Positions 41,410 through 63,290 of a stretch of DNA of 64,000 nt are shown here, one piece after another; the first letter of the stretch is position 1; each line of letters opens with the position of its first letter. The stretch is from Psammoneis japonica (lineage: Eukaryota), in NCBI GenBank assembly GCA_008632985.1, contig QPGO01000049.1, positions 248,001-312,000 of the forward strand, given 5' to 3'. The position numbers were made by a program, and so were the translations under genes. The notes under the pieces were generated by a model. The model was given only the letters and a program-made list of their open reading frames with translations, did no database searches and was not told the origin of the DNA.

Positions 41410-41650
41410 CACTGGTGTCTGGTCAAAATCCAACTGGGGTTGTGGAGCACACAAAAATGGAGGATGGCCAAGAAGTGCAAGTGGCTCAGCCACTGGCTGA
41501 GTGGTCAAGTGGCGCCACCATTTCTGACTTCTTGTTTTGAGACACACCAGACTCTCCAGCAGCACAACAACAAACACACAACAAACTGTCCCAGCAATGG
41601 CAATCTTGTCAGAGCCTGCAGCGGTGCTGGACAACAAATGCTGTGGTGCT
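41410..41650 (+). pseudogene. Third, short copy of the TM9SF 3' end and downstream DNA
   Basis: LVSGQNPTGVVEHTKMEDGQEVQV versus LVSGQDQTKMEYVKMEDDQEIQV; the 3' flank also aligns with 38510-38650. Confidence 0.75.
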
Positions 41651-43385: not shown

Positions 43386-44389
43386 TGCCGGTGCTGACAT
43401 GTGTCAAATGACATCTTCAGTCAGTGGGCGACACATCCAGCTCACAGATGTGCTCCACACCGGGTTTTCACTGAGATGGAAGAGCTGTTCCAGAATGGAA
43501 TCGACGTGAAGCAAGCCATCCAACAATTTTGACAATTGGTCAGCAAGTTTTCACATGTGCTGATGTTCTCCTCTTGAGCACTGTTCTTCATGCTGATTTC
43601 ACAATCACAACTTTGGTCCATTCATGTCTGTGAAAGCCAAAAATGTTGCAACTAGAAGGAACATTGTAGAGAATTCCACGTTCAGCCTTCTTTCATCACA
43701 CCCGACGCACTCCCCTCACAGCCGCACTGAAACGTTTTGCCATTCGCAAACACACACCAGAAAGAGGATGAAAAGATCGACACTTTGAGATCTCGAGATT
43801 AGGCTGTGCCATGATCAAACCTTTTCCAGCCAAAATGCCAACATTGCTTGCTGTGTTTTTCTCTGATGAGTGCATCCATGAAAAGAGAGGTGAGAAAAAA
43901 CCCAAAAAATGAATGAAATCTCCTTCCTGTGATTTTTTGCTGTGTTGCTCAGACTCCACTCTCTCGCAAACTTGCGGCTTCAATTTTGGTTCATTCTCAA
44001 CAGATTGAAGAGTGGCAGCAGCAGCAGCAGCAGCAATGGAGGTGGAGGTGATGCTCTCAGAATGTCAGGGAGACTGCCCTGTTGGAATCTCCTGCAGAAG
44101 TGCACGACCTTGCATGCAGCACACAAGCGTTCAGAGATCCTCGTGTGTGAAGAGCACAAATCAAAGAGTTGCCGTGCAAGTGCATGGATGCTGGTTTGTT
44201 TGCACCAGCAGTCATGCTCACCCTGCAGGGATGGTCAGGGAGCTGCTCCTAAAAATTGCACAGCCATTGCCGACTGTTGCCCACCACAAGCTTTTGCAAT
44301 GCCTGACATGCCTTTCAACCCACAACCATGAACAGGGTCAGAGCGTGACGTGCGTGGGTGACAAAACAAGTGCATTTCTGCATTGACAG

Positions 44390-45870
44390 TTGTGGGTGGA
44401 GACACTGCAGAGCTGACAATTCCATGGAAATCTCAACCACTGTTGAAAGAAGCAATTGCCATTTTTGCCATCACCGCTGCTTCCAGCCAATGTTGTTTTT
44501 GTGGTCCTGATCTTCTGCCAGAACCTCTTCCACATCGGCCTGGTGAACCACCTTGCAATTTTGTGGTGAGAGATGGGATGATCATAGAAATGCTCGCACT
44601 CCTCTTCAATTCAATCATCCAAAACAATGTGAGTTTGCAGAAGGCTTTTGGATGTTGCCGATTCATTTGTGCACATCCGATGCAGCCGCACATCCCAAGC
44701 AACATCCCACAAGTGAACAATCAAACCAGATGCCCATCTCAGGCCCATGTTGCATTGCTCCAGACAGTCACAATGCTCCTGTTGAGCATGAGCCCACTCA
44801 ACAACCAGAAAGCCACAGGCAAAAAAACATTCTCCAACTGTCTGCTGTGCAAGAAAGATCTCTGTTGCAAGTTGGTGTTCTGACTGAGGTGTCAGTTGAG
44901 GGATCTTGTCATGCCATGATGCAAGCAGTTGAATGATGCCAAGCTTGATGTCAGGGTGAGTGTGGTGCTTTGTCAGCCACTCCTCCAGGCCTTCCAGTTT
45001 TGTCAACCACAGTTCTTGGGTGGCAAAAGACTTGCATCATAGAACATGACTCTCCTTGCATCTCAGACAAACTGGACTTTCTATTTTGTCCCATCTGTGA
45101 AGATTGTTCTTTGCAAGAACAAAACCGGTGAACCGCTTTGGTTGCCACAAGCAGCAGAAGGTGGGGCATCATTGCATTGCTTTTCCTGATGTGTTGTCCA
45201 GTTGATCTCAGCATGGGTTGGCTCTGCTTTGATTTTTTCTGTCCAGTGCTGAGAGGCGGAAGGTCCACAGATGTGATCTAGAAGTCATGGCTTGTCCCAC
45301 TGAGTCATTGGAGCTCCTTGCGGGGTCACTCCCAAAGCAAATGTTCCCATGTCAGGTGTGCTCAACAAAGCTTCTCAGCGTGTTTTTTCACTAACAAGTC
45401 CATTTCCATGTTCATCACTTCAAGACAGGTGAGTTGACTGAGATTTGCTTCCCGATTTTGGTGCCCTTTGATCTGTGCCAGTGAGACAATGATCAGAATC
45501 TCCTGAATCATGCGTGCTGATTGGACAAATTGGGTTGCAGTTGGACTGTCTGGTGTCATCACAGTTGTTGACAAAGCATGTGCTCAGCACAGAATTGCAG
45601 TCACATCCCAGGACAATTCCACCTCTTGTGATGTGCGCAGTGTCTTGCACAATTGTTGCAGCTTCTTCCAAAGAGTCCCACAAATGCCACCTGGCTCTCC
45701 CTGGTGTGCACTCTGGTCAATTTCTTGGCATGGTGTTTGATTTGCTTCTTGGCATCTGTGAGAGTGGCTCTCTGATGGGACAAACATCATTGCAGCTGTC
45801 ACCATCTTGTCCTCAAAGGAACCATCATCTGTGATGCTGACAGCCATGCTGTCTTGAATGCCCTTTGCCA
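44390..45870 (-). mobile_element. 3' fragment of an RNase H-containing diatom LINE (Ambal-like), degenerate
   Basis: AVSITDDGSF...DQSAHQGEPGGICG...GIVLGCDC RNase H-like; C-terminal AQQTVG...GFLVVEWAHAQQ...GLRWASGLIVHLWDVAWD. Confidence 0.7.
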
Positions 45871-45871
45871 G

Positions 45872-46300
45872 GGCCTTTGCAAACATGCAGGGTTATGCAG
45901 CATTTTTAACTTTTGCCACTCCAGGAAACAAGGCACAGCCAGACCCAAATGCCCAAGCATGAGTTCACTTCCTTCAACTTGCAGAACAGAACAAATTAAG
46001 AAAACAGGTTGAAATGGTGCACATTTCTGGGTTGGCCATTTTTGCAATGATGTTGTCCTGAGCAGTGAAGTGATTCTGATTCTCACTCAGAAAATTGAGA
46101 TCCACAAAATGCAAAATGGCAGCAACTGTTGCTGCTCTTTGATCTTGTTGCCACATCCATTGATGCGATTGTTGCAGTGTTGATGGTCTTCAATCTTTTG
46201 TGCTGTAAAATGCTGCTGCTTTCCTTGTCATGCATTGCAGTTCTTTTTCTTCTGGTGGTTCTGCCAGTGCAGCCTCGTGCAGATTCATTTCAAGAAGACA
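45872..46300 (+). pseudogene. Degenerate copy of TRM61 3' end, intergenic DNA and TM9SF 5' end
   Basis: ggaaacaaggcacagccagacccaaa and gcagttctttttcttctggtggtt shared with 36027-36460. Confidence 0.92.
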
Positions 46301-46589
46301 GTTCTGCATGTAGAAGACCCAGCACAGAAAGCCAAGACCCAAAGGCTGTCCAGCTCACATCAAGCCTTCAAGGTCCAAGCTCCCAACAGTTGTCACAACC
46401 CAAGTGAGGCAAGGCATTGCAACAGATGATTTTGTGCCAACCACTGCTGCTGAAGCTGATTGGATTGGCTTTGCATCAAGGTGCAAACCAGGCTGGGCTG
46501 TTTTGTGCCACCACTGGACCATGCCATTTTCCACCTCTTGGTGTTCATTGTGAAAGAGCACCAGCCAGATGATGCCCTTGTTGGCTCAG

Positions 46590-48200
46590 CTTTTGCTGAC
46601 ACACTTGGCAGGATCTTCTGCTGGTTGGGCAGCACCAGCATCAGATCTGTTGCTCATGCCATCTGACCAATTCATTTCATTGCAACACTTTTGCACTGAA
46701 ACATCCTTCTTGTGCTTTCTTTCTTTGAAAATTGCTTTGTGCTGATCAACAAACAGAATGACACAAAGGTCTTTTTTGGTGATCAACTTGTCCATCATGC
46801 CATTCTTTGCCACCATCTTTCTTGAAGCCTCTGGGTGCAAAATTCAGCATTTCCCTCCCTCTGCACTCTTTTTCTTTTTGGACTTGTCTTCATCAATGTG
46901 CCTTGTCTCTGCCACAGAAGATGCCAGCTGGAGACAGTTCTTGAGTCACTCCGGTGCCTTCTTGTCATTTGCAAAGCAACAGCGTGCCAAAATGTCACCC
47001 AGAAAGTTGAGTTTTTGCTCTGGAAGCTTCTGAGTGGCCCCAGTTGCACCAGCAAGCTCCACAATGTTTCAAGCATGAACATCAACAGAACTGGGTGCCA
47101 GAAGTTCTTGCCAAGTGCTTGTGATTTCCACGTGCATCAAGAGCAGTGCTGGGCATGAGCAGAGCTCATTTTGCTCTTTGACAACAACTTTGGATCTCTG
47201 CAAAAAAATTGGGTCATGTGAGCAAATGAAGCCTTGCCATGCAAGCCCAGCAGCTTCAATTGAAAATGGTGGAGACCATCTGTGATGTGGCCAGCTGACT
47301 TCAGGGCAGCTTCAATTTCTGTGTTTGCTTGTGAGGGCTGCTCCTTGTCACACTTTTTGGGCACCTCCCAGTCAAGGTGATCTGGGTTCTCTTTTGTGAG
47401 CTCACAGCAACCTTGCAAACTCTGGTGGTCCTTGAGGGGGATCTTGAATTTCTCTGGAAGGTTCTTGACACACTCAAGGGTGAACCTGCCATGGTTGTCA
47501 ATGGATTGAACCACAACCTTCTTGGCAGCTGGCAGAATCCCATGCCACCAAGATGGAAGAAGCAGGCACTTGTCAGTGACAGTCTCAGGCTTGGGTGCTT
47601 GTCCTGCCTCAGTGAGTGGATTTGTCTTTTTACACCACTCTGGAAAGGAAACCCTGGTGCTTGGACAAAGATTTGCTTTTTGGAACAAAGATTTCTAAGT
47701 CTCCTTGCTGGTGCCATGGCAACAACAGAGGCCTGCTGCTGGCACAAGACCTCGCTGATCATTGACGCACTTGGAGCACTTGACCAATCCTTCCTGAGAG
47801 AGGGTGTTGTTGCTCTTGGCAACAAACAAGCTGCACCCTTGCAAATTCAAGCTCTTTTGAACTTGTTGGTCATGTTGCCACTGCGCTGTGCACAGCATTT
47901 CACAATGTCCACCAAACCCATCAAGTGTTTCAAGAAACCACCGCTGTGGATTGTCACAAACAACTGGAAGACTTCTGTGTCCTTTGACAATGTTTTGGGC
48001 AATTGCATCCCATGCTTGCTTGGTCACAAAAGCACTTGGCATCATTGCAGTCATTGATCCTGGCTTTGCACTGTGTCTTGCAAGAAAATTGTCTGCAAAC
48101 CCCACCAATCATTGCTCACCAGCCAAGCACCATGCGGTTGGGCCCACACCACCACTGGCATTTCCTGCACAAACCATTGTGGCCATGCAAAAAGGGGCTC
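46590..48200 (-). mobile_element. Degenerate DDE (pogo/Tc5-like) transposase
   Basis: GSMTAMMPSAFVTKQAW...PQRWFLETLDGFGGH and FQKANLCPSTRVSFPEW, recognised from memory as DDE_1-like motifs; several frameshifts. Confidence 0.55.
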
Positions 48201-50824
48201 TTTTTGCCATGGCAGTTGAGACAGGGGAGATTGGAGTGGCTGCAGCAGCACCAAGTCTTGAAACAAAAGACTGTGCCCATGCCACAGAGCAGTTGGCTTG
48301 ATGACCAAATGTGAAGCCTCACATTCACTGCTTGGACACCTGGCCAAACAAAGAAGAATTTTGGAAGCAATTTTTTGGTCAGGATGTTGCATTTTGACTT
48401 GGCCTTTGGTGCGGGACCAACCAAATTGTTCACACACTGTGGGCCACTCATGTGTTGATTGTTGTCATGCAGTCTGTGATTTGAAGGATTGTGTGTGACA
48501 CAATGGCAAATTGGACAAGTCACATGCAGTTGATGCTCTTGTCTTTGGGAGACTTGGCAGGAAGAAGAGCACAAGCAAAGAAGTTGAAGATGTCAAGAAC
48601 AGCAAAAAATGGAAGAATGGCAACAAGCACATTCAAAGGTGGGCTTGTGACACATGCATCACTGCTGCAGGCACTGAGTCAAAGTCAGAGAAATTCCATC
48701 ATGTTGTCAAGCATTTTGGGAACATCGGTTCCAGAAGCACCCTTGTTGATGCTCTCTGCCTTGCTGGGACTTGCAAGCACAATGCAGGAATGAGAGAGCA
48801 TCTCCAAATCAATGGCATGCTGGCTGACAAGCATGCCAAGATTTTGCATTCCTTTTAAGGCACACCCACCTTTCTGAATCACAGTTGCCTTGGCTGCAAC
48901 AACAAGCTGGCAAAAAAGCTGGAGATCAACATCTGGTGAACAAGAATGTCACAGAGCTGGCACAAGAAAATGGAGAAAAAGCAACTTGAGCATTTGAGAG
49001 AGGAGCTCAAGTCAAGGAAGGTGCCAGACAACAGCACCCCCAAAAACATGTCATGAGACAGATGCATGTGCAACAACAAGTGTGGCACAAAACACCCATG
49101 TTAGACAGTGCCAACTTTGTTGAGAACTCACAGAAAAGAAAATCAAAGTCACAGCAACAGCCACCATCTGAGGAGCTGCGCACAAAAAATAAAACCTTTG
49201 AATTTGCAAGAGAAGGTGGCCTTGCCACAAAAACCACTGCCAGTGCCAACTGCACAGTGCCCCATTCCATGTTGCCTTCCAATTGCTGTCATTCCATTTT
49301 GGAACAGCTTGCCAACATTTTTGCCACCTTTCCAGATGCCGCCAAATCTGCAGCTGGATCTGAGCCAAAAATTCTGTTGTTTCTAAGCACCAGATTTTCA
49401 CCTTTCAAAAACAAACTTTCTGGGGCTGGCCACTCAAGGAAAAGTGCCACATGATGAGTGTTGTTCATCACCAAAGCAGCCTTCAAATGAAAATGCATCA
49501 TTGCAGTTGTGCTTCCATCCCACATTGCATCTGGAATTGGTGCCAAGACAGAAGATGGGAAACAGTGGGCAATGGCACTTGAACAAAACCAACCCTTGAA
49601 TCTTTTCATGTGCAATGGATTGATGTCCTCCATCTTCAATGCCACAAAAATGCAACAACAATTGAGCCACGCCCTCACTTCTGCCATTGCTGCACAAGTG
49701 CTGCACCCTTCTTCTCTCTTCCTTTCCCCAATTTCAGGAGCAATTCAAATGACACTGTTGGAGACATCATGGATCTGAAGCTGCAGTGGTGTCAGAAGAA
49801 TTTTGCTGCTGGGACTCCATCATTTGCTGTGCCAAAAGATGACAAGTCTGTGTCTCCACATTCTGTGCACTGTGAGACTGAGGGTGTCACAGTTTGTGTT
49901 GTGCAGTGGGAGCCAAACAGCATCAGCATTGAGTTGATGTGCATGGATTGTGGGGGCAGGCTTGTGTGCCAACAATTTAACATCAGAAGAGGCTGTTCAC
50001 TTGCTCCTGTTTTTGACATCAGAGGCACCACTGATTGGGCTTGCTCTGTGTGGTGCAAATGTGATGTGAGTGTGGATTGTTTTGCCTTGGCAATGCTGTG
50101 CAGCTCAAGCACTCTTTGCTGCTGAACCTGCAGACAGCCTGTCCAGTCAGTTGAAGGTGTGCCTCCACAAAAAAACAGCTTTCACATGACAAAGGCAACC
50201 ACATGCTGCACTGATCATGTGATTCAGCAACACAGAAATGGCCAGGCAACGTTGGTGTTCCTGCACCAAATGAGGGCTGCAGCCTGCAAGGACATGGAGA
50301 TGTCCTGTCATTCACAACCAATTGCAGAATCTAAGTCAACGCAGGCACTTTCCAAGTTTGAAGATTGGGTTGAACAACACATGGGCCAATGCCATCTCAG
50401 ATGAGATGTGTCACACATTCTCTTAGAGATGCAATTGGTTGTGAGAAGCACAAGTGATGCAAGTGACTGTGCCTTCATCAGTTGAACAAGAACTGCTCTA
50501 AAACTGAAGCAACTGGGCTGTTCATGGTGGGGGTTGTGACTGGTGAGATTGGCTCTGCTGTTTGTGTTCCATCCTTGGAAACCAAGGGCTGTGCCCACAC
50601 AGCAGAACAATTGGAAAAACAGCCAAATGTGCATCTGAAAGTTCATTTCTTGGATGCTTGATCAAATGACAAATTGTTCTAGAAGGAAATGTTTGACTGT
50701 GATGTGAGTTGTCATCTCAAACCATGGCACCAGATGAGCTGCATCACTTGGACATTGCAGAAGACACATGCTGAGACTTTGGAAGGCAGTTTCAGACTTG
50801 AAGCTTGCTGTGCATTGTGGCAAG

Positions 50825-50993
50825 TGTCAGACATCCGAGATGGGGAGTGCACTCCCTTGTGTCGGACAGACTGGCACAGACAGCATGGAGAGATCCGATG
50901 ATCTCTCCTTTGCTCACTTTCTTTCTCATCTAGTGCACGATTGTCATCTGTCCCAGACATCCGTTAGATTGTCCCGATGCCACTAGTCCGCAA
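50825..50993 (+). repeat. 5' LTR
   Basis: 161 of 169 positions identical to the 3' LTR by manual alignment. Confidence 0.95.
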
Positions 50994-51195: not shown

Positions 51196-54100
51196 ATGGT
51201 GAACAAAAATCAAAACGTCGTCGATTTGACCAAGATCAAGACGATGCAGGTTGAATTCAGCCCACACAATCGCGTGCCCGATGCCCACATTTTCCTGAGT
51301 GCTCTTTGTTTGGACGAGATCCCTGCTCCTGAAGATCTTTTGGATGAATTTGCCCCTCAAGGCCTCAAGAGCGACGCTGTTGCTGTCCTCCGACATGAGA
51401 TCGTTCAGAATCTCATCATCCCTGAAGCTCTCCAGACTGAGGATCTTGCATGAATTGGACCCATCATTGAGAAGGCTCCTCTCTTTGTGGCTGCTCCTCA
51501 AGGCCCCCCGGTTCGTCTGAACCTTGGCACTCTTCAGAAGACTGTGATCAAGGCAATTTCAGAGAATGACGATGCCATGCATCTGTGTGTTGGGACTCTG
51601 CATTTCCATTTCAGCCCTCGTTTTCGACATCATGATTGCTGGGATGATGTCTCCGATGGTCCGTGTCCGGATCCACCGACCACTTCGAGTTCTGCATCTG
51701 CACCAGTTGCTGCCACAGGTCCCACTCCCGAAGACTTTGCTGAGGCCCCAGCTTCTCACTCACCTGGTCCAAAACAGTTTGAGCAAGCTGTCACAAACGC
51801 GTTGAAGAACTCTGCTCCCAAGGTGTCGTCTCCTGCACTGTCCACCATGACCACTGCTGGCATGGCTTCTTCATCGACTGCTGCTGGTGCCACACACACC
51901 TTTAATCTGAAAGGACTTCCAAAGGATGTGCTGGCCCGCCATCAGTGCAAGGAAGCTGGGAAAGTGGCACTTGGCAAATCCCTGGTGCCCTGCAAGTCTG
52001 GAAACCTTCATTGCGAGGATGGTGCTGAGCGTCTCATCCTTGCTGATGGTTCACTCTTTGTTCATTGCACTGACTGGGACGCGAAATCATTCCTTCGCGA
52101 TCCTCTCACTTGTGATGACATCTCTCCTCAAGGAATCCGTGCATGGCACATTGCTGCAACCCAACAAGCCTCGGCTTGTGGTGCACACATGCATCCTCTG
52201 TGGTGTTTTATCAAGGATGGTGGAAATTGGGGTTTCACTTGTGGCAATGATCCCACCGATGATCCACCTCTCCGGATGACGGCAGCACTTGACCAAATGA
52301 AACTGACCATCTTCCAGTGCATTCAGAAAGTTGGAATTTTTCCGGCAGACTCCAAGCACCCTGACATCGTTCGCCAATGTCATGGTGATGGACATGCAGC
52401 TGTAAGATGATTCTCTTTGATGTCCTGCCGATTTGGACGAAGCGTCCATGTGAGTTGATCAAGAGCCACCCGCACCAAAACAACCTCATGGTCCTTGGCT
52501 GTTGTGCTCCATTCAGAGACTGCCTTCAGCTGCAAGCTGTCATCTCCAATGTTGATGCATCTCTTGATGACCCTGGTGAGCTTGACATTTTTCTCAGCAA
52601 TGCCCACTGTGGCGAGTGCCTTCACCGTAAAACAGTGGATGCCCAGGAAGACAAGACCCAACAACACAAGTTCACCCAGAAGAAGATTGTTGAAACTGTT
52701 GGTGCGATTCTCAAGGAACCGGGTGGTCCAGCTCTACTTGTCAAGGACCCTCCCAAATGTCCTCCACGTCGTCTTCACACTTCGCCTCCTCCTCCTCTTG
52801 CAGCTCCTGTCCGCGGTCTTGAATTGCTTCCCCAGGATGAAGTTTCTACTCCGCCTCCAGCGATTGAAGAGTCTCCCAAGGAATCTGCCTCTCCTCCTGC
52901 GGAAGAACCTACGGAAACTGTGGAATGCTTTGTAAATGAACTTGCTGCTGTGGATGTTCCTCCAGATGATGATGCACAAGCCCTCCATGGTGTCCACAAG
53001 GCCTGCATCCATGGGATCAAGTCCTCGCCTGCCACTGCACAGAACCGTCCATGTGTTGTTTGTGGCAATGACCACTTGTTCCACGAGTGTCCTGTGTTGA
53101 ACAATGCTGAGTGCCTGCACACCCATCTCATTTGGTTCTCCCAGTTTCTTCAACGTGACCAGCGTGCTCGTGATGCACTTCAGTCTGGCACGGCCAAGAA
53201 GGATTTTTCCTGGGGCCATTGTCATGTTCGGACAAACAATGCTGCCCATTCTCCTCCAATCCGAAAACTCCTGCAAGCGGGGTAACTGTGAAAGAGGGTC
53301 AAAATGACTTGTTGCCTTCCGCTGATCCTCCTCTTTCACCTGTCTCATTTGCTGCCCTTCTTTCGAGCTCGACGAAGGCTGGTGCTCCTGATCCCAAGAC
53401 GATTCCTGATGATGACCCTGGTGATCACAATCAGGGGAGGGAATTCGATCCTCCTACATTGGACACTGATGCTCCATTGTCCACTGATCAAGACCAAGCA
53501 TTTGAGTGTCTTGACATGACTGACACCCAGCATTTGTCGCCTCTCAGTGCCGTGCGCATCTCCCCAATTTTTTCTCCCCCGGAGTCACCTGTGACCTTTG
53601 CATCCTTGACCACCCCAGTCGTTCCCATCAATCATGTGCTTCGTGATTCAATGATGTGTCGTGCACAGATTGATGCTGGTGCTTGGGTGTCCTGTGCAGG
53701 GGACAAGAACCTCCTCCACGCACGTGCTCCTTTTGGACCGGATGACCCATGCCCTTTGAAGATGCTTCCGGCTGCTGAAGGCTCTGGTGCGGTTCCTCAT
53801 GGCTTTGGATGCCCACAGGTGCCTGCAGACAACCCCGAAGGCTTTCTTCTCGTACGCACTTTTTACCATCCCAGTCCACGATCCACTTTGATTGATGAAC
53901 GTGATTTTGCGCGGGCTTCTGGTTTCAAATCTCAGTCCATTTGATCCGAGCTCCTTGAGAAGACATGCGCCGATGGCACTTGCACTTACACTGCTTCCAC
54001 TGACACACAAGCAGCAGTTGTCCATGGCACACTTCGACATGGCAAGGCATTCACACAACCCCTGATTCCTCCGTCTCCATCTGGTGTCCCCTCGACACCG

Positions 54101-57100
54101 ACGACCCCTGACTTGTCCTTGGTTGACGACGTCAATGATGCATGTCAATGTGCAGCATTTTTTATCAACGTCCAACAAGGTCCATCTGATCCCTTGCTGA
54201 TGGATGCTGAGCTGTTTTCGGTGCAGTGTGACTCGGCTCCGTTGTCCACCCTGCTCCTGTCTGCTCTCTCAAGGTTGAGACTGAACGTCTTCTGTGGCAT
54301 CAACGCCTTGGACACCCCAGTGATCGCCACTTGTGCAATGCTCACAAGTGCATCAAGGGTGTCCCCAAGTTCCGTCATGCTGGTCCCGTCCTTGACATGT
54401 GCCCTGCGTGCATCCAAGCCAAGCAAGTCAAGACTCCTGCTGGACCGAACACGACTTGGAAGGCGACCCAACCATGCCAAGGTCTCACTGTCGATTTTGC
54501 TTTTGCTGGCCAGACTTCCAAGAATGAAGCCCGCAAGGTTGATCATCTTGGACACAATGGTGAAACATGTTGGATCACTGTCTGTGATCATCACACGCGG
54601 ATGCTCCATGGTGTAGCGAGGGTTTCAAAGGCCAGTCCTCTCAAGTGGCTTCGCCGATTCTTGGATCGACATTCACTGAATTGTCGTGACAAACATGCAC
54701 TTGTGGACCACAGTGGGGAATCATACAAAACCCCAAAGTTCGTGACCTCTTTGAACGAGAATTCCAGTGTGACATCTGTCCTTCTGGCGCTGGCGCATCC
54801 AACCAATGTGGGCCTGTTGAATGCTCACATTTGACTGTTGAGAACGCGATTCATGCGATTTTAATTGGCGCCAACCTCCCGATCCGATTCTGGCCCTGTG
54901 CATTTTATCACTGCCTCCGTGTCAAGAATGCCACTCCTGCAAAAGATCAAGATGCGGCACCTGTCACTCTTGCTGCCAGAAAGGTCAAAGATTTTACTGC
55001 TCTGAAGACTTTCGGATGTCGAGTGTGGTCCAAACGGTCCACTGCTCGTTCTGCTGCCTTCCGGGCCAATTCCAAGAAGGGTGTCTTCCTTGGTTACCTT
55101 CCCAACACCCTCAAGAATGTCATGTGGTGGGATCCTGAGACTGATGAAGTCAAGACAGCCAAGCATGTGCGCTACGATGAAGGTGTGAATGACCCACTTT
55201 TGGATCAACTTCCTCCCAATGCTGTCCATTTGCAGCATGTGGAAAATGGTCAGCCTTTTCCAGCTGAAACACAGGACACCACCATTCCCATGTTTGCGTC
55301 TTCGTTGAATCCGTTTGCTGCGACCATTGCATGCACCATGAAACGTCCTCCAAAGGACCCTGCTTGTGGTTTTGGATTTTCTCAGTGTGCGCTAATGGAC
55401 CGTGTCCATGTGTCGGAAATCAAGCAGCGCAGTCCTGCGGCTTCATTGTTTTCTTCCCTCCGTGCTGCTCGCAACAAGATTGTGGGTGCATGTGTTGTCT
55501 CTGTCAACAAGCGTGAAGTCTTTACTCCTTCGGATGCTGAAGAGGCCTCATATCAGGTCTTTCATGATAAAATTCCGACTTTCGAGATTGCTTTTGCACC
55601 GGAACGACGATTGGATTCTCGCACTCTTAACAAGGCATTTGAGGAAGCGGAGTTGTTTGAGCCGGACACTGTGGAGGACGACTCTCATGTTCCTGAACTT
55701 GCTTTGGAGGATGTGCGATCTGTTGTGGCTCTTCTCTGTCCCGATGATGATTTTTTGGATGAGGCCATTCCTGCAGATGCATTTTATGCACATCTCAATG
55801 CGATTAGCTCTCGCTCACTCACTCCGGAGGAAGCTGCTCTTGACCGTCTCACCCGTGCCAAGCTTCGTAAACTTGACACATGGCCTGAATGGGAAGAAGG
55901 CGAGCAGCGTCAACTGGACCAATTTCATGCCCTGGGTGTGTGTGGTCCTCCACAACCATGTCCCCCTGGCGCGAATGTCATGCGTCCGCATTGGGATTGC
56001 ATGGCAAAGCCGGATGGCCAACGTCGCTCCCGACAATGTGGTGATGGTTCCAAGTCGGCAATGCCGGCCTTGCATGAGTTGACTTCCACCTGTTCGTTGT
56101 GTGTGGAACGTTCCATCAAAAAGATGTTTTTCGCTCTCAGTGCGGCCATGTCGCATCTTGTCTTTGGCGGTGATGCACGGGATGCCTGCACTCATTCTCC
56201 TGGCCCATCCCAACTGGTTTTTGTTGCTGTTGATGATGCACATGCCGCCTGGTGTGAAAAACGATTTGGCAAGAAAGCACCCCGCCACTGTGTTCTCCCG
56301 CTCAAGTGTGCTCTTCAAGGCCATCCTGAAGCTGGTGTCCTCTGGGAGAAGCACATCAATTCGATTCTCATGGGTGCGAAACTTCTTTTCCGTAACACTG
56401 CTCATGATGAGTGCATCTGTTCCGGTGAATGTGATGGTGTCAAGGTCCTCCTCCTTCGTCAGGTCAATGATTTTGCTCTTGCTTGTCCATCTGAAAAGAT
56501 TGCAAAAGAGATCTACGACCACATTGGCAGGGCTCTCCAGATGGAGAATGAGGGTGCTCCTCCCTTCAAGCATTTGGGCTTGGTTGCTGAATTCAATGGC
56601 ATTGATGTCATTCAAAATGACGACTCAATCACTGTCAACGTTGCCAGCTACCTTGACCGTGTTTTCAAGACCCATGGTTGGGACACTCCCGCTGCACATG
56701 AGTCTGATTCTGATTTCAAGGCCACACCTGTTCCGGTTGATTGTGTTCCTGATCTGCACACTGCTGAAGGTCCTGAAGAGGGCACACCCGAGTGTGACAC
56801 TCTTGCTGAGTCCCAAGGATTCTCGCATCGTTCTGTCTTGGGTGAACTGGTCTTTGCCCACTCCTGTTGTCGTTTGGATGTTGGATGTCCTGTTGTCACC
56901 TTGTCCAAGTTTTCCAAGGCACCGGCTGAGCTCCACCATGATTCACTCAAGCGTGTGGCCAAGTGTTTGCGCCGTGCCAAACATTGGGGACTGACCTGCA
57001 AGAAGTCTAAACGCGATCCCGGCCTGCCTCCTCACGATTTTGAATGGCTTGAGGATGACCCATCTCTCCCGGATTTTCCTCGTGCTGTTGACCTTTTCCA

Positions 57101-57568
57101 ACTTCTTGGATTCATTGATGTGGCACATGGCAATGAACTGTGGCGTCGCCGTTCTGCTGCTGGCTGTGCGCATGTCCTTGCTGGTGCTGCGATTGACTGT
57201 CGATGCCGCACGCAAACGATCACCGCTGCTGGTTCCACAGAAGCTGAGTTCCTTGCGGCTGTAACTGCTGCAAAACAGACCCTGCACCTCGCATGGTTCT
57301 GGAAGAATTGGGTTTTCCCCAATGTGGCCCCACTCCCTTGCACATTGACGACTCCTCTGCCATCCAGATGATCAACAACAAGGTGCCTACGGAGCAATCT
57401 CGTCATGTTGACACTCAACATTTTGCTGTCCAAGACTGGCGTGACGTGGGCAAGATTGTCACTCAACATGTCCCGGGTGTCATTGACCCTGCTGATGCAC
57501 TGACCAAGGCCGTGGGTTGGATGCTCCACGCCCGCCATGCCCGCCGCTTGTTGGGACACTGCCGTTGA
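51196..57568 (+). pseudogene. gag-pol of the copia element, broken by frameshifts and stops
   Basis: CVVCGNDHLFHEC knuckle; QIDAGA protease; LWHQRLGHP; QGLTVDF integrase; ALQGHPEAG and RQVNDF RT; STEAEFLAA and PADALTK RNase H. Confidence 0.93.
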
Positions 57569-57709: not shown

Positions 57710-57878
57710 TGTCAGACATCCGAGATGGGGAGCACACTCCCTTGTGTCGGACAGACTAGCACAGACAGCATGGAGAGATCCGATGATCTCTCCTTTGCTC
57801 ACTTTCTTTCTCATCTAGTGCACGATTGTCATCTGTCCCAGATGTCCGTTAGATTGTCCCGATGCCACCAGTCTGTAA
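57710..57878 (+). repeat. 3' LTR
   Basis: Follows the polypurine tract and is followed by the target-site duplication. Confidence 0.95.
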
Positions 57879-58007
57879 GCAAGGAGCTCAACAAAGCAAG
57901 AGCAGTTGGGGCATTGCCTCTGACAAGCTGAGCAGGAAGCAGCACAGCACCAAAGAGATCCAACAGTTCAAGGAGAGCAAGCTGTGGAAGAATCATCATG
58001 CTCCTGA

Positions 58008-59655
58008 ACAAAGAAGGGCATCACAACAACTGGCTCCTCAATGACACCTGCCATTGGCAGGCACAGGTCATGGTCCCCACAACATGCTTGCAAAGTGCCA
58101 TGCCAACAGGCGCTGCAGCCCTGCTTGGCTTTGTTGATGTTGTGCCCAAGAGACCCTGCATTTCAACCATGTCAACACTCACAGCATGGATTGTCATGCC
58201 AGTGCAAATGGAGGACACAGCATTGTCAGTTTTGCAGTGAAACCTCCAAGTGTCCAGCACTGTTTTGCAGAAGGAAAGTTTGATTTGGGCAGCATCTCCT
58301 TGGACAGCCTTGCCAAGCACAAGAGTGCAACTCCTGTCTGCAGCTTTGGTGGTTGTGTTTTTTAAAATGGTGGGTCTTTTGAGTCTGGCAAAGGCCAGCC
58401 AGGGCCAATTGTCATTTTCTGCTGGATGCATTTATCCTGTCAGGCTTTCTGAATGTGAGTGCATCACAGTGCAGTTGAGCAGAACTTTCATGAAAGAGGA
58501 GTGGTGTCTGCCTTGCATCTGTCAATGTGGGGCTTGCCTTTCATCACCTTTGCCTTCTTTCCAGCAAAGCAGCCAATCCAGCAAAGCAGCCAACAGGAAT
58601 CATTGTGGCTCTCAGAGCCATTGCATGGAAATTGTGTGGAACTGCAGCACCAAGAACAATTGTCATCAACCTGTCCATCCATCTGCACCTGAATGTCAAC
58701 TTCTTGGGAAATCAATTGAAACGTTGTCTGATCAAAGGCGTTGCTCTTTGCCATGTAAATCAAGGTGCCTTTGATCAAATGGCATTTCAACTGAGTTCCC
58801 ACAAAGTCATTAGCTCTGATCACTCTCTCATGTGACACTGTGTGCTTTTCCACATGATTTTGCATTTTCTCTTGTGTGAAATGTTGGTTGTGGCTGATGT
58901 GACATTTTTGAATGATTTCTGTTGCAAGTTCTTTTCTGGATGGCATCATCAACAGGTGCTGTTCTGCTGACTGCCCTGCCATTTTTGGCTGTGCTGCTCT
59001 TGCTGGTTTCTGTAGACTTGACCCACTTGGGTGGCTTTGTTGGATGCAAATGGCAATTGTTGGCAATGTGTTAAACCAAAACAAGCTGTCTAGAACAAGC
59101 AAACAGTCTCGGTTGTGCATTGTGGTTGTCTTGCTGCCATTCAATGTTGTGCCTTGCTTTGGCTGTTGCAATGATGTCTTGTCAAGCACAGCTGCTGCTG
59201 GTCTTCCTGTTGTGGTGGGGTCTTTGTGCTCCTGATTGGAGGTGCCTTCACCTTTGGGTGCATGTGTGTCAAGTTGTTTTTCATCCTGACAGATGTCTGG
59301 ATGGGACAGCATTGCTCAGTGTTTGGATTTCTGTTTTTTTTTTGTTGTCTGCATTTTGACATCATTGACTTGTGCTGGAGTGTCAATCCTTTTCAACTGC
59401 ACTTGCCACTGAGTGTGCAGATGAGCACTGCAATTGGTGGTGGCAGTTTTTTGACACTGGTGCAGCATCAATCTGGCTCTGGAGGTGATGAGTTTTCTGA
59501 CTCCTGTCTTTTGTGCTTTGGATCTGTGGCATGGGGTTTGTTCTTGGAGTTGTCTTTTTGGCAAAATTGTCCCATCTGCTGGCATCTGGTCAAGATCAAA
59601 CTGGGGTTGTGAAATGTGTCAAAATGGAGGATGGCCCAGAAATGCAAGGGTTGTC
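58008..59655 (+). pseudogene. Degenerate copy of the TM9SF middle and 3' end
   Basis: 58008-58319 aligns with about 36705-37007, 58320-58571 with 37411-37668, then an insertion 58572-58923, then 58924-59655 with 37666-38505 (MLLIGGAFTFGCMCVKLFF versus MLLIGGAFTFGCIYVELFF). Confidence 0.93.
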
Positions 59656-60516
59656 ATTGTCTCAATTTTGCATCATTTCAAATTGAAAAATGGCTGCCAG
59701 CAATTGCAACATTGTTGGAACCCACAGTGGTGGACATGAGTGCGTTTTGTGCCAAAGTTGTTGCAAGCACTCCTCTGCATTGTGCTTCTACATTGTGCAC
59801 AAGTGATCCATGGGATGGGATGGCAGTGCCAACTTGGGGTCATTCTGCAATCAAAGGTTGCCTGGCCTCATTCAATGAAAAGCCATGATGTTTTTTTTTC
59901 TCCAAGCTTCTGCTTCCCAGCCTGCAGTGACTCACACCACTTTGACCACACCATGTTGTCCAGGTCCCAGCCAGTGTCAGGCAGACACTTTTTGTGGCAA
60001 ATGCTTGCCAGCAGCCCCCACGTGTGTTTCTGCTCACCTTCTCGTGCTGATGTGCCCTTCTCAGACGGCACTGTGCTGGGTCTCCCAAGACCATTCTGCC
60101 CATTTCAACCAATGGCACACCCTTGTTTCAGCATGTTGAGCAATGTTTCTAAGTAGAAAATGACTGGTGTTGACTTCTTGTGCATGGCTCACATGCTCGT
60201 TGATCTTTTTTGACTCAAGAAATTTCCCACATGGACTCCAGTGCAAATTCCACACACGTCAGCAACAACCACCCAACAAATGCTGTGTCGACACTGTCAA
60301 CACTCTGAAGTGCTCACACCCATGCCCACTGGTTCTCAATGACCTTCTTTGTCTCCATCGGCCAATCAAGTGCTCCACTCTACTTGGCGAAAGCATCTCC
60401 TCTGTTGTGGCACTGATGAGCATTGATGTGAGTCTTCCTTTGGCACCAAGCAATGATCATCCTTTTGTTGCACATGTTGGCATTTCTGCACAAGATCTGG
60501 CATGATTTCTACACAA

Positions 60517-61214
60517 GACAAATGTTTTTTCCCATGACTGACACGGTTCATCTTCATGGCTTCTTGTTTCATGCCTGCAAGCCCTGTGCTGCCCAGCTTC
60601 TGCATGCTGGCTAATCAAGCTTGCCACTTTGAGTGGCGGTCTTGCTGTTCTTGCCATGGTTCCTCAAGGTGTGCAAATGAGACACCTCATGATGCCAGTT
60701 GGCATCTTTCAATCAAGCAAATTCCAGGGTCCCTTTTTGCTTCCTTTGTGGCTCCTGTTGAATTTTTCTCCAAATGCAACTGTCCTCTGTGGTTGTGGTG
60801 TAACTGACATGTGCATCACCAGCAAGACTGCAGTGAACTCCAAGTGTTGTTCTCTCTGGGTTTCACATGAGACAAATGTTTTTTCCAATGACCCAACAAG
60901 GTCCATCTTCACTGCTTCTTGTTTCACACCTGCAAGTCCTGTGCCACCTCACTTCTGTCTTCTGGCCAACCAAGCTCACCACTTTGAGTGGTGATCTCAC
61001 TGTTCTTGCTGTGGTTCCTCAAGGTGTGCAAATGAGATGCCTCATGATGCCAGTTGGTGCCTGTTGCTCTCAAGCAAATTCCAGGGTCCCTTTTGCTTCC
61101 TTTGTGGCTCCTGTTGATTTTTTTTTCAAATGCAACTGTCCTCTGCAGTTGTGGTGCAACCAACGTGTGCATCACCAGCAAGACTGCAGCAAACTCCAAG
61201 TGTTGCTCTCTCTG
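60517..61214 (+). repeat. Tandem duplication, period about 354 bp
   Basis: 60517-60858 aligns with 60871-61214. Confidence 0.9.
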
Positions 61215-61396
61215 TTTCAACCATTTCCATTGGGCATTGCCTCTGGGAGATGCCACACTTCAGGTTGATTGCATGAGCTTCTGCCGCACTCCTTGATCAG
61301 TGTGCTGGAACTGTGGGTCAGCCAGCACCAGTGTTGCTGGGCAAAGGTGCAACAGCACTTTAAATCATGTTTGTTTGTTTTTTGTCTGTGCACAGG

Positions 61397-61592
61397 AGGC
61401 AGAGAGCATTGCAAGTGCCAGCTGCTGGAGTTGAGTTGCCAGTGCAGCCTGGGAGGAGGATGGTGCTGCAGTGCCAGTCACTGGCATTTTCTGTTTGCGC
61501 ACAGGCAGAGAGCATTGCAAGTGCCAGCTGCTGGAGTTGAGTCACCAGTGCAGCCTGGGAGGAGGATGGTGCTGCAGCGCCAGTCACTGGCA
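61397..61592 (+). repeat. Two 90-bp direct repeats, period 106 bp
   Basis: 61397-61486 versus 61503-61592; differences are TG/CA and TG/CG. Confidence 0.9.
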
Positions 61593-61599
61593 GCAACAA

Positions 61600-62990
61600 G
61601 GACAAAACAAAGGAGTGTTTTAGCTGGAGAGCACAGTGAGGGCTCTTTTCCAAGCATTTGTCAAGTAAAATTTGCTGATTGCGCAGCTGGTTTGCCCCAT
61701 TTAGTTGACAGGCAAGCTGGGGCAATCTCTCCAGTGCTTTGAATTGCAGCACTGCTTTGCAAACTTCCTTTGCCTGGTGTTTTTTTTCTCCTTGGCAGGC
61801 TCAGACTTCAACAGCAGAGGCACACTGGTGTCACTTGTGGCGCTGACCCACCAGGTGGCTGTCTGGCTGCTCCCCACCCCCAGCCAGAAATCCATCAAAA
61901 GACTGCAAGGGCAGTGGTCTTGTTGTCCCATCAGAACAAAAAAAGGACTCCAGAGCTGGAATGTGCAGTGGCAGTGCATCAATGACAAAACACCATCTCT
62001 CTCAAGACTGCTTTCAATGCAACCTTCCTCTTTCCACAAACCAACAAACATCGCAGGTGGGAGTGAGCACATGCAATGGGATGGACAGCTGGATGGATCT
62101 GGCACAACAACCTGATTTTGGCAAATTGAGAATCCCAACATCTGGGTTGCTTTGGGTGGGTTGGACAGCCACCACCTCCTGGTTGCTTGAGGCATCACAT
62201 GTTGCACACACAAAGCTGGGTGTTGTCATGCCACATGATGTGGCACTTTGAAGTTGCACCCCATGCAATGCTCAGAACAACAAAGAAGTGCATCTCATGC
62301 CATGGAACTTGATTGTTTGTACATCAATGGCCACAAAGTTGATCAAGATGAGAGTTTTGTCATCACACCACAACAAGACAGTGGAAGATTTTGATGGTTG
62401 TGCTGGATTTCTTGGCACTGTTGACTGTCATGCCACATTCAGACACGCCAACAAACAGTGTGTTTGCTGACTTCCACAGGGCTCTCACAACTGCTGCGTG
62501 AACAAGTCCAAAATCACTGGGTTTGTTTCTGCTGTGCAGCAGATGCAATCATCATCAGCATCTGAGGAGTGCACGTGCACCGGCATGAACAGAGTCATTT
62601 TTTTCTTCCAGCTTCCCATGGCAGATGCACAAAATGATGTTTTGATTTCCGGTGTCAACAATGCATCTTGCACGATGTGGCAAGAGGAGCACTTGAATGT
62701 TTTTTTTCTGAAGAGAGTGGAGGAGCGCCAACTTGTGTGTCAAATGCAGCTGTTGGATGCTGTGAACAATTGTCGGCACCCACGACTCTCTCACATCGAA
62801 TGGCAGTTGTGTCCACAGATGACGCCATGCATGGATGAGATCAGCTGCACTTGCTTCTCTCATGCCCCCATCTCCCCTTGTTTGGGAAGTTTTTGCTTCC
62901 TCATCAAAGAGGCAGTCTCAGCCACAACACCTGCCTTGTTCTTTTCCACCCTGCGGTGTCAGCGCAGCTTGGCTGTGTGATGTGGCACAT
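61600..62990 (-). mobile_element. Possible degenerate LINE 3' fragment
   Basis: AADLIHAWRHLWTQLPFDVRESWV resembles the RNase H region of diatom LINEs; otherwise eroded. Confidence 0.35.
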
Positions 62991-63037
62991 GATGTGCTTT
63001 GTCACGGGACAGTGCATGAAACCCAACAGTGCAACAA

Positions 63038-63290
63038 GGCCTGTTCCAGCTCCAGGTGCTCCTCGAAGGTTCGATTCCCATCTTTTGTGCATTTGGCGCA
63101 ATTGACTTTTTCCAAATCCGTTTTTTGCCAAATCGAGGGGCAAGTGCACTCTTTGCATGTGTTTTCGGGTGCACACTCACCTCTTGATTTTTGAAACGAT
63201 CAAAATTGAAGGAGTCAATTGAAGCCAAACTGCGCAGAAAATCGGCCTCTCTCGCGATGAAAAGCGGATCACCTGGAGCTGGAACAGGCC
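63038..63290. mobile_element. 253-bp MITE-like element
   Basis: Perfect 21-bp terminal inverted repeats GGCCTGTTCCAGCTCCAGGTG (63038-63058) and its reverse complement (63270-63290); no clear target-site duplication. Confidence 0.7.

Follow-up and report, generated by a model that had tools for sequence, protein, structure and literature searches.

Erosion of TpA dinucleotides and conserved tyrosines in a copia-type retrotransposon and decayed gene duplicates of a diatom chromosome

Within a 64-kb stretch of diatom DNA (the whole stretch analysed, hereafter the window), a copia element has lost nearly all of the tyrosines that its relatives conserve, mostly to cysteine or histidine, and roughly half of the window consists of TA-poor blocks, the older of which are CG-poor too, with TG and CA about doubled. 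Taken as a whole, these observations are very probably explained by regional hypermutation at TpA after integration, joined by a slower loss of CpG. As far as sequence can tell, the signature, its direction and its regional limits appear established; by analogy, the process may be a defence-like one, directed by chromatin or repeats, of the kind described in Bigelowiella natans.

Judged by its repeats and domains, the element belongs to the diatom type of Ty1/copia LTR retrotransposons. Direct LTRs identical at 161 of 169 positions and a short target-site duplication (the 4-base CAAG, alternatively, if the LTR is one base longer) enclose protease, integrase, reverse transcriptase and, last, RNase H, in that order, collinear by tblastn with P0001 residues 1-1427 in four frame pieces.

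50820..50824, + strand: target-site duplication GCAAG, 5' copy (the same 5 bases flank both LTRs)
50825..50993, + strand: 5' LTR, 169 nt, beginning TGTCAG
51454..53285, + strand: a presumed gag region, by position only, made up of two long frames (51454-52410 and 52389-53285) upstream of pol
53288..54154, + strand: pol N-terminal region (protease side), frame 2; tblastn to P0001 residues 1-287, 36% identity
54256..54735, + strand: integrase N-terminal part, frame 1; Pfam gag_pre-integrs, E 2.4e-9; 60% identity to P0001 328-487
54720..57341, + strand: integrase core, SH3-like region, reverse transcriptase and RNase H, frame 3; 51% identity to P0001 483-1354; carries the motifs listed below
57290..57559, + strand: pol C-terminal end, frame 2; 66% identity to P0001 1338-1427
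57710..57878, + strand: 3' LTR
57879..57883, + strand: target-site duplication GCAAG, 3' copy

The purine run GGGGAGGG directly adjoins the 3' LTR. Pfam assigned no family to the two frames at 51454..53285, and in pol gag_pre-integrs and SH3_retrovirus (frame 3, E 2.4e-10) pass their cut-offs; RVT_2, at 25.9 bits, stays under its cut-off of 31.6, as expected of a decayed copy, and the relatives have PF13976, PF25597 and PF07727. Domain order and content are those of diatom Ty1/copia elements, which we take to be the so-called CoDi groups, and the best named relatives come from Nitzschia inconspicua and Cylindrotheca fusiformis (45-46% identity). Unlike these elements the window copy is dead, with two frameshifts (near 54725 and near 57290), one internal stop (a single TGA at 53942, in the protease-side frame), a loss of 33 of its 36 conserved Tyr, and ND in place of the catalytic DD. 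The frame from integrase to RNase H nevertheless runs for 856 codons without a stop, and it is reasonable to suppose that the process at TpA would kill an element without creating new stops.

The pol was aligned with 46 full-length relatives, and all columns in which one residue reached at least 60% among them were scored (n = 708). Where that residue is Tyr (36 columns), the window pol has 3 Tyr, 17 Cys, 10 His, 3 Phe, 1 Arg, 1 Ile and 1 Trp; 3 of 36 retained compares with 510 of 708 for conserved columns overall (Fisher p = 2e-16), and stricter conservation leaves 2 of 18 Tyr columns retained at 80% and 1 of 8 at 95%. When each of the 46 relatives was set against the other 45 as a control, Tyr retention was 61-97% (median 81%), the replacements being mainly Phe (251, with 24 His and 5 Cys). 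The composition of pol follows suit, with 0.8% Tyr and 4.4% Cys in the window as against 2.4-4.7% and 1.1-2.3% in the relatives. Opposite majority-residue columns, 18 of 40 Cys codons face Tyr, as do 13 of the 48 His codons of the window. The strand outcome at Tyr, 17 Cys versus 10 His, does not differ significantly by our estimate.

A first-pass annotation, made from the letters alone, had proposed a systematic replacement of Tyr by Cys or His in copia motifs, and 27 of the 36 majority-Tyr columns indeed now hold one or the other. All eight motifs that it quoted are present in the window, in the tblastn frames, and the majority residue of the 46 relatives is Tyr at every one:

FWPC, codon TGT at 54897: Tyr in 39 of 46 relatives
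QPCQG, TGC at 54475: Tyr in 34 of 46
ICSG, TGT at 56418: Tyr in 46 of 46
FSHRS, CAT at 56826: Tyr in 41 of 46
AHS, CAC at 56859: Tyr in 46 of 46
VGCPV, TGT at 56886: Tyr in 41 of 46
AKCLR, TGT at 56964: Tyr in 46 of 46
AAGC, TGT at 57165: Tyr in 33 of 46

In RRSAAGC, the two Ala face Thr in 46 and 45 of the 46 relatives (GCT preceded by T). Relatives sharing the Cys or His residues, which would speak for residues native to the family, were looked for among the 46; these carry Tyr in the columns concerned, and the native-residue reading was rejected. The span first given for the pattern, 54280..57300, is right for pol but too narrow for the phenomenon, which takes in the whole element (50825-57878) and about half of the window.

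The mutational direction read by the first pass, TA to TG or CA, is borne out by four independent lines, namely changes outside Tyr codons, other copies of the family, pairs of genes and duplicates, and the counts of Cys and His codons. With the ancestral state inferred from relatives at most 51% identical to the window pol, 132 unambiguous one-step changes were counted, among them 45 A>G (41 after T) and 22 T>C (16 before A), that is, A:T to G:C changes mostly at TpA; since most TA>CA changes that span a codon border are silent, this count gives a biased excess of TG. For A>G outside Tyr codons (I>V, T>A, M>V and others), the preceding codon ends in T in 24 of 28 cases, and of the 27 Tyr losses 10 appear as T>C when read along the sense strand. 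Ordinary decay is present as well among the 132, in the form of 37 transversions and of 18 G>A changes, just 7 of which follow C. TG and CA outcomes succeed one another at random, in 101 runs where shuffling gives a mean of 93.5 +/- 6.4, and form no strand tracts.

Further copies of the family were seen in the sequencing run X1, where depth suggests about 20 internal copies and some 100 LTRs and where 239 places, 214 of them transitions, vary against the window copy. X1 was the only run listed as containing the stretch, and no RNA run was listed for it. The 34 best-supported sites among the best 40 of these 239 places include five TG-versus-CA doublets, one at a conserved Tyr, and the best 40 take in only 1 of the 27 Tyr-derived Cys or His codons. 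At that conserved column (54544) the codon is CAT in the window copy but TGT in the greater part of the depth that other copies contribute; as each is one step from TAT and two from the other, the pair supports TA as the ancestor. The QVND of the reverse transcriptase, which had been attributed to CG>CA, fits as well: the codons read GTC and AAT, other family copies have G at 56466 (depth 712 of 813), and Asp stands there in 46 of 46 relatives. A TA loss common to the roughly 20 copies would date part of it before the insertion in the window.

The two LTRs bear on timing. They differ by 8 mismatches in 169 nt, at 6 sites, all of them transitions within TA, CG, TG or CA dinucleotides and none elsewhere, which argues that the process acts on integrated DNA; with 3 and 4 TA left per 169 nt, the LTRs are less saturated than pol. 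Judged from the LTRs and from the interspersed outcomes, an action after integration and without strand tracts appears demonstrated.

The composition of the window is divided accordingly into depleted and normal parts:

1601..5800: depleted block in which the lipase gene and its neighbour recur in decayed form (3237-4373)
9801..13840: depleted block, in which Pfam recognised no domain
20316..22182, - strand: lipase gene region, intact and of normal composition; reference for the decayed duplicates 3237-4373 and 25652-26005
36328..38505, + strand: EMP70 host gene, intact, with normal TA and CG (Pfam EMP70, E 5e-126); reference for the decayed duplicate
39401..50819: block poor in TA and CG, upstream of the element, with a decayed GCD14 3' end and spacer copy (45856-46297)
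57884..63200: TA- and CG-depleted block downstream of the element, with a decayed EMP70 copy (58010-59648)

Observed over expected (o/e), TA falls to 0.01-0.11 in the affected blocks, and the whole window stands at 0.24 for TA, 0.58 for CG, 1.49 for TG and 1.51 for CA. Genes hold 33.8 TA per kb, whereas the element has 6.4 and the depleted blocks have 2.8. At the codon border 3|1, host genes show TA 0.61 and CG 0.90, the copia pol 0.10 and 0.34. Eight non-coding spacers adjoining genes are normal (TA 0.45-0.75, CG 0.70-1.67), and the switch from normal to depleted takes a few hundred bases, as seen over the 64 kb covered. Outside the element, 67 long frames and 73 shorter ones were searched with Pfam, which recognised host genes, a single RVT_1 element and the remnant of EMP70 but nothing else; as the remaining depleted DNA holds no Pfam domain, it cannot be called mobile elements.

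The intact genes and their decayed duplicates were also compared site by site. Where the gene has TA (n = 106), the duplicate has TG at 48 sites, CA at 40 and TA at 4, that is, TG or CA at 88; where it has CG (n = 133), TG stands at 51, CA at 50 and CG at 11, so that 101 of 133 sites show the decay expected of deaminated methyl-CpG, methylation being presumed. TG and CA are themselves largely retained (193 of 242 and 156 of 204). None of 27 Tyr survives, 12 having become His and 9 Cys, and 9 of 38 Arg are left, with 6 each of His, Gln and Cys. The duplicates also bear indels and transversions.

On the bases around the target we make two side observations. The 3' neighbour is a pyrimidine in 33 of 45 TA>TG and 22 of 40 TA>CA changes, a weak trend on which we make no claim. 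Surviving TA in old blocks is mostly YTAR (42 of 66; the figure for normal DNA is 80 of 614), which is suggestive, although newly made TA could contribute.

Relatives of the element were also sought in metagenomes. When 34 intact relatives were aligned and used for the scan, 77 loci came up, a sample poor in fully mutated copies since one of its two patterns demands Tyr or Phe at conserved Tyr; a scan with the window's own mutated protein gave 24 pattern matches and no relatives. The 77 loci have medians of 40.8 TA and 41.4 CG per kb, the window element 6.4 and 38.8; TA thus lies some 6-fold under its relatives' but CG nearly equals theirs, which argues that TA is lost faster than CpG. The signature recurs in 4 of 76 loci, with Tyr retained at 3 of 21 positions in L065 (9 Cys, 7 His), 3 of 11 in L049, 7 of 19 in L041 and 7 of 18 in L057. 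For three of them (L065, L049 and L057) the match to the window element is limited to 151-211 bases at 68-72%, and blastn found no match to it for L041. Across the 76 loci, TA o/e and Tyr retention correlate weakly (Spearman 0.24, p 0.035).

We picture the following course. The copia element would have inserted, with a 5-bp target duplication, into a stretch of diatom chromosome that had already decayed, and a regional, DNA-level hypermutation would then have converted TpA to TpG or CpA (A:T to G:C), choosing the strand independently at each site and ending once the dinucleotide was no longer TA. Because all Tyr codons contain TA, nearly every conserved Tyr would become Cys (TGY) or His (CAY), and TA spanning codon borders would turn Ile into Val, Thr into Ala and Met into Val. 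The stops TAA and TAG would be lost rather than gained, leaving long frames open and the protein ruined. A slower, ordinary conversion of CpG to TpG or CpA in the same blocks, presumably by deamination of methylated cytosine, may have changed QVDD into QVND. Both processes would be limited to blocks with mobile elements and decayed gene duplicates, and neighbouring genes and spacers would be spared. As for the chemistry, we tentatively suggest enzymatic deamination of adenine in DNA, which may well prove not to be the answer.

The trigger and the chemistry could each differ from this picture. Duplication itself might set off a RIP-like process through homology sensing, with neither chromatin state nor foreignness involved. 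Every recognisable sequence in the depleted blocks is indeed repeated, from the copia family with its approximately 20 copies to the lipase, orf21097, GCD14 and EMP70 fragments, each of which has a second copy in the window. Yet for the greater part of the depleted DNA no second copy could be detected in the window, the intact partner genes are unmutated, whereas RIP in fungi is described as mutating both copies (PMC2621366), and the hypermutable viral region of B. natans is reported as single-copy (bioRxiv 10.64898/2026.01.13.699255); we consider a duplication trigger unlikely. The same targeted process might instead run through a modified thymine, such as hydroxymethyl-uracil at TpA, pairing with G. 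T>C at a T before A is indistinguishable, by sequence, from A>G at the A after T on the opposite strand, and in dinoflagellates the hydroxymethyl-uracil of the DNA is concentrated at TpA. The one study so far of such a process, however, proposes an ADAT2-like adenine deaminase, itself a prediction (bioRxiv 10.64898/2026.01.13.699255), and a thymine route seems to us distinctly unlikely.

Explanations that dispense with targeted DNA mutation fare worse. A genome-wide bias against TA and CG wherever selection is absent would agree with the low values of the window as a whole and with the depletion of most long intergenic stretches, but the weakly selected codon-border sites of host genes and the eight gene-side spacers are normal, and composition switches within a few hundred bases, which makes such a bias very improbable. 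RNA-level A-to-I hyperediting of the transcript by an ADAR-like enzyme, fixed by reverse transcription before integration, would account for the commonest inferred change, A>G after T (41 of 132). Editing of this type favours an upstream U (bioRxiv 10.64898/2026.01.13.699255). Against it, ADAR is not known outside animals, sense-strand T>C lies behind 10 of the 27 losses of Tyr, and TG gives way to CA and back again over tens of bases, with no tracts. The editing hypothesis is contradicted above all by the LTRs, identical when integrated and now different solely at TA, CG, TG and CA sites, and by host-gene duplicates that are not retro-copies and show the same signature, so we hold it to be highly improbable. 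Least credible of all is a sequencing or assembly artefact in which modified bases of silenced DNA are miscalled. The depleted blocks do coincide with DNA that is likely methylated, and the stretch was found in only one sequencing study. A miscall, however, would be systematic, and here TG or CA is random per site; the decayed copies carry indels and transversions as well; run X1 contigs at about 66x repeat the depleted flanks, including block 57884..63200, with 0 other letters over 671, 1877, 885, 565 and 767 bases, although X1 is one study, may be the sample behind the window assembly and is hence not independent; the Tyr to Cys or His pattern also occurs in contigs of other metagenome series; and Illumina data of B. 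natans gave the same spectrum (bioRxiv 10.64898/2026.01.13.699255).

If regional hypermutation at TpA is the right reading, several practical consequences follow. With TAA and TAG removed, dead DNA retains long open frames in six frames, which gene callers annotate; similarity scores of mobile elements fall under family cut-offs, and dating by LTR divergence becomes wrong. A simple screen offers itself, for low TA, raised TG and CA, and Cys or His in the place of Tyr, and the sequence preferences of the putative enzyme can be measured directly from gene and duplicate pairs and from multi-copy families. The window and the four metagenomic relatives together point to a widespread process in ecologically dominant algae. 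On a more speculative note, for which our confidence is lower than for adenine deamination as such, diatoms may possess a RIP-like defence of opposite chemistry, in which directed DNA adenine deamination erases TpA to saturation in retrotransposons and duplicated gene fragments, far faster than CpG decays. Were this true, its occurrence in a chlorarachniophyte and in several unrelated environmental diatom elements would make it an old system, spread widely through the SAR supergroup, and a single dual A/C deaminase might even explain why TpA and CpG are lost from the same blocks.

In fungi (RIP, C>T) and in animals (APOBEC, ADAR), the silencing of mobile DNA by hypermutation is well established. 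A process directed at TpA with A:T>G:C changes has one prior report, from 2026, in one alga and in viral inserts (bioRxiv 10.64898/2026.01.13.699255). In a mutation accumulation experiment with B. natans, that preprint states, two integrated viral regions gathered 231 mutations, of which 230 were A>G or T>C, all at TpA, the rate being about 1000 times that of the background, and TpA-depleted coding sequences of this alga were enriched for reverse transcriptase and DDE domains. Literature searches for a TpA-erasing signature in diatoms returned no report within the library covered; in the window it occurs at saturation in a diatom, on an LTR retrotransposon and on decayed gene duplicates.

The likeness to B. 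natans is close, in that TpA alone is targeted and becomes TpG or CpA by strand, and yet the differences are several. The host is a diatom, hence a stramenopile, and not a chlorarachniophyte; the targets are a retrotransposon and duplicates of host genes, where B. natans has giant-virus or virophage inserts; TA o/e is near saturation at 0.01-0.11, as against 0.45 in the B. natans viral region; and CpG loss accompanies the process here, of which the abstract, Results and Discussion of the preprint make no mention (bioRxiv 10.64898/2026.01.13.699255). ADAR hyperediting of repeat RNA shares the A>G change with its preference for an upstream U or T, but it acts on RNA in strand-coherent clusters and should spare integrated LTRs and duplicates that are not retro-copies; with the LTR differences, the lack of tracts and the affected gene duplicates, its fixation by retrotransposition was rejected. 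The decay of CpG in methylated transposable elements resembles our findings in the CG to TG or CA changes at 101 of 133 duplicate sites, and diatoms do methylate transposable elements, via DNMT5a (PMC9998398); it explains the CpG part only and cannot yield A:T>G:C or Tyr to Cys or His. Fungal RIP, finally, is likewise hypermutation limited to repeats and mobile elements, ruins coding by transitions and leaves a dinucleotide signature, but it proceeds by C>T, mainly CpA>TpA, and enriches TA (PMC2621366). It was rejected here on both counts, since TA goes to TG or CA until it is virtually erased and the intact partners of the duplicates are spared.

The first-pass annotation drew its motifs from the pol of a Ty1/copia LTR retrotransposon at window positions 50825-57878 (+), in which both LTRs are bordered by a perfect 5-bp target duplication (GCAAG) and four pol frame pieces run collinear with full-length relatives:

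50825-50993, +, 5' LTR (169 nt)
53288-54154, +, pol frame piece 1
54256-54735, +, pol frame piece 2
54720-57341, +, pol frame piece 3
57290-57559, +, pol frame piece 4
57710-57878, +, 3' LTR (169 nt)

The Pfam families gag_pre-integrs and SH3_retrovirus exceeded their cut-offs on the element, and RVT_2 stayed below threshold (25.9 bits; cut-off 31.6). A protein search returned 143 pol relatives with a top identity of 51%, the named ones being from the diatoms Nitzschia inconspicua and Cylindrotheca fusiformis. The named homologues of the host genes beside the element, GCD14 and EMP70, are all from diatoms (best identity 63% and 51%, respectively), and the host is, judging from these homologues, a diatom. 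Highly identical database entries are lacking for its proteins, which excludes Bigelowiella natans as the host, provided that the published proteome of that alga is part of the collection.

We aligned the four frame pieces with 46 relatives spanning 1250 residues or more (from the first 55 matches, 9 shorter ones being left out) and treated as conserved the 708 columns in which one residue reached at least 60% among the relatives. The element retains the majority residue in 510 of these, including Trp in 15/15 columns, His in 27/28 and Gly in 54/60. Tyr is kept in 3 of its 36 columns and replaced by Cys in 17, His in 10, Phe in 3, and Arg, Ile and Trp in one each (Fisher's test, p = 2e-16); at 80% and 95% conservation, 2/18 and 1/8 are kept. 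When each relative was compared with the other 45, it retained 61-97% of the Tyr in question, and Phe predominated among the replacements (251; His 24, Cys 5). The alignment to intact relatives therefore confirms the systematic Tyr to Cys/His replacement that had been noticed in the sequence. All of the quoted motifs are present, Tyr holds the majority at every claimed site (in 33-46 of the 46), and Thr stands opposite both Ala of RRSAAGC (46/46 and 45/46), as D does opposite the N of QVND (46/46).

A direction of mutation had also been read from these motifs, namely TA to TG/CA, with QVND taken as consistent with CG to CA. The 198 changed columns comprise 132 with one unambiguous base change, 49 with more than one and 17 ambiguous. 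Of the unambiguous changes, 45 were A>G (T preceding in 41), 22 T>C (A following in 16), 18 G>A (C preceding in 7) and 10 C>T (G following in 7), and the other 37 were transversions. For the 28 A>G changes that fall outside Tyr codons, such as Ile>Val, Thr>Ala and Met>Val, the base in front sits in the previous codon, which makes them a test in their own right; that base is T in 24 of them. Within majority columns, 18 of the 40 Cys codons of the element stand opposite Tyr (11 opposite Cys, 3 opposite Arg), as do 13 of its 48 His codons.

A comparison of the window with itself, which needs no distant relatives, paired intact host gene regions with decayed copies:

20316-22182, lipase and neighbour, intact; decayed copies at 3237-4373 and 25652-26005
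36012-38500, GCD14 end and EMP70, intact; decayed copies at 45856-46297 and 58010-59648

Across seven aligned pairs in total, the 106 TA sites of the intact copies read TG (48), CA (40) or TA (4) in the decayed copies, and the 133 CG sites read TG (51), CA (50) or CG (11); TG was retained at 193 of 242 sites and CA at 156 of 204. The intact members being conserved diatom genes, the ancestral states are TA and CG. In translation, none of their 27 Tyr is retained, 12 being His and 9 Cys in the decayed copies, and 9 of 38 Arg are retained (His 6, Gln 6 and Cys 6 among the rest). The proposed direction is thus backed by both the base-change contexts in pol and the gene/duplicate pairs, and the reading of QVND also holds, as other copies of the element in a public sequencing run containing this stretch (run X1) carry G, preceded by C, at 56466. 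The loss of TA is near saturation.

The loss of TA and CG to TG/CA is regionally confined. Depleted blocks at approximately 1.6-5.8, 9.8-13.8, 24.6-26.0, 30.2-32.4, 39.4-50.8 and 57.9-63.2 kb (TA observed/expected 0.01-0.16; TG and CA 1.7-2.0; CG 0.05-0.19 in older blocks) alternate with normal stretches (TA 0.45-0.64, CG ~1) that contain host genes for Rad21, an M14 peptidase, a lipase, a MYND protein, a STAND ATPase, EcKL, GCD14 and EMP70. TA occurs 2.8 times per kb in the depleted blocks, 6.4 in the element and 33.8 in gene regions. At codon border 3|1, which is under weak constraint, TA and CG ratios are 0.61 and 0.90 in host genes and 0.10 and 0.34 in copia pol, and eight non-coding spacers adjoining genes have normal composition. 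The border values and these spacers rule out selection on protein sequence as the cause of the contrast; because the spacers and the host-gene borders are normal, genome-wide bias is likewise rejected within the 64-kb window.

Several further features of this mosaic were observed. The decayed host-gene duplicates sit in depleted blocks; those of the lipase include its neighbour orf21097, and that of EMP70 is interrupted by ~11.7 kb of inserted DNA, the copia element included. Over the 23.2 kb of depleted blocks 66 TA survive, mostly as YTAR (CTAA/TTAG 23, TTAA 14, CTAG 5); YTAR makes up 80/614 of TA in normal DNA, and ATAC/GTAT falls from 118 there to 1 in the blocks. These contexts hint at a flank preference of the TpA process. 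The downstream block carries tandem repeats at 60541-61214 and 61397-61592, one of ~355-nt units (83-90% alike) and the other of a 106-nt unit (97%). The region 13841-20172 (-), with a strongly purine-rich + strand (G 40%, A 29%) and intermediate TA ratio (0.17-0.35), contains a pair of very long open frames (1284 and 727 aa), which match RVT_1 weakly (36 bits) and encode Ser/Pro/Leu-rich products (Tyr 1.0-1.4%); it is possibly a second, partly mutated retroelement whose frames stay open through scarcity of TAA and TAG.

The two LTRs show 8 mismatches over 169 nt, all of them transitions and all confined to 6 dinucleotide sites (two TG-vs-CA doublets, TG/TA, TA/CA, CG/TG and CA/TA). Being identical at integration and now differing only there, they indicate that at least part of the process acted on integrated DNA, and it far outpaced ordinary mutation. 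TA was lost faster than CpG: the element has 6.4 TA and 38.8 CG per kb, against medians of 40.8 and 41.4 in 77 metagenomic relatives. CpG depletion is stronger in the flanks than in the element, which is therefore the younger insert. TG and CA outcomes are interspersed at random in the gene pairs (101 runs vs 93.5 +/- 6.4 in shuffles) and at copia Tyr sites (13 runs vs 13.6), each site having mutated on either strand independently. RNA editing fixed by reverse transcription is rejected by the post-integration LTR differences, by this randomness, by the sense-strand T>C origin of 10/27 Tyr losses, and by the gene duplicates, which are not retro-copies.

Run X1, from one study, is the one public run found to contain this stretch and may be the assembly source, hence not independent. 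Its contigs match the depleted flanks with zero other letters at a word depth of ~66, and the depth of ~1100-1800 in the element interior and 5800-7700 in the LTRs corresponds to roughly 20 internal copies and ~100 LTRs. The LTR depth (50807-51207 and 57624-58024) suggests numerous solo LTRs of this family. Relative to this copy, the others vary at 239 places (214 transitions), and the best-supported 40 of these form 34 sites that include 5 TG-vs-CA doublets; some of the Tyr losses may be common to the family rather than private to this copy. One conserved Tyr column, at codon 54544, reads CAT (His) in this copy and TGT (Cys) in most of the other depth, which is parallel decay of a single TAT.

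Scanning metagenomes with an alignment of 34 intact relatives yielded 77 copia-like loci, 76 of which had enough data for scoring at 28 conserved Tyr positions; the element itself shows Tyr 2, Cys 12, His 8 and Phe 3 there. Four of the 76 fell under the lowest Tyr retention among database proteins, namely L065 (3/21 kept, Cys 9, His 7; locus TA ratio 0.24), L049 (3/11), L041 (7/19) and L057 (7/18). L065, L049 and L057 align with the element at just 68-72% identity along 151-211 bases, and blastn found no match to it in L041; the four therefore represent other families or hosts. Because one of the two scan patterns admits only Tyr or Phe at a conserved Tyr position, the prevalence of such loci is under-estimated. 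Across loci, TA ratio and Tyr retention correlate weakly (Spearman 0.24). Milder Tyr>Cys/His loss occurs in L027, L029, L013, L054 and L055.

The original observation was therefore correct, and the analysis supports the interpretation given to it: the element is one casualty of a regional TpA-erasing hypermutation. With TAA (212) and TAG (232) about six times rarer in the window than TGA (1452), dead DNA stays open over long stretches in all six frames. No stop interrupts the 856 codons of the IN-RT-RH frame, although 33/36 conserved Tyr and one catalytic Asp have been lost; 99 stop-free frames of at least 140 aa lie on both strands, and those without a family match, which are the majority, are a trap for gene callers.

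As to mechanism, the depleted blocks would be silenced DNA, and the TpA process would be enzymatic and defence-like, with adenine deamination as the candidate chemistry. A modified thymine mispairing with G would leave an identical signature, though we consider it quite improbable. Every recognisable sequence in the depleted blocks is repeated, as expected if duplication as such, rather than chromatin state, were the trigger, but the intact partner copies are spared and we regard this trigger as unlikely.

A literature search for the TpA signature turned up one match, a preprint of 2026 on Bigelowiella natans, and nothing on diatoms. In mutation-accumulation lines of that alga, A>G and T>C changes, every one at TpA, accounted for 230/231 mutations in two integrated viral regions, arising at ~6e-7 per site per generation (1000x background) and only in some lines; reverse transcriptase and DDE domains were enriched among TpA-poor coding sequences, and an ADAT2-like deaminase acting on DNA was proposed, as a prediction only (10.64898/2026.01.13.699255). 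CpG is not mentioned in the abstract, Results or Discussion of that preprint, whereas the blocks described here lose CpG too. As diatom mobile elements are reported to be methylated via DNMT5a (PMC9998398), the CpG part fits ordinary methyl-cytosine decay; many diatoms also have DNMT4, which is related to RID, the RIP enzyme of fungi, and is described as of unknown function (PMC9998398). Fungal RIP, in which CpA>TpA changes strike both copies (PMC2621366), is a functional analogue of the TpA process but has a signature opposite to the TA loss seen here, and neither of these two features was found in the window. The present element and its surroundings thus provide a new, saturated case, in a diatom, of a process reported once, in an unrelated alga.
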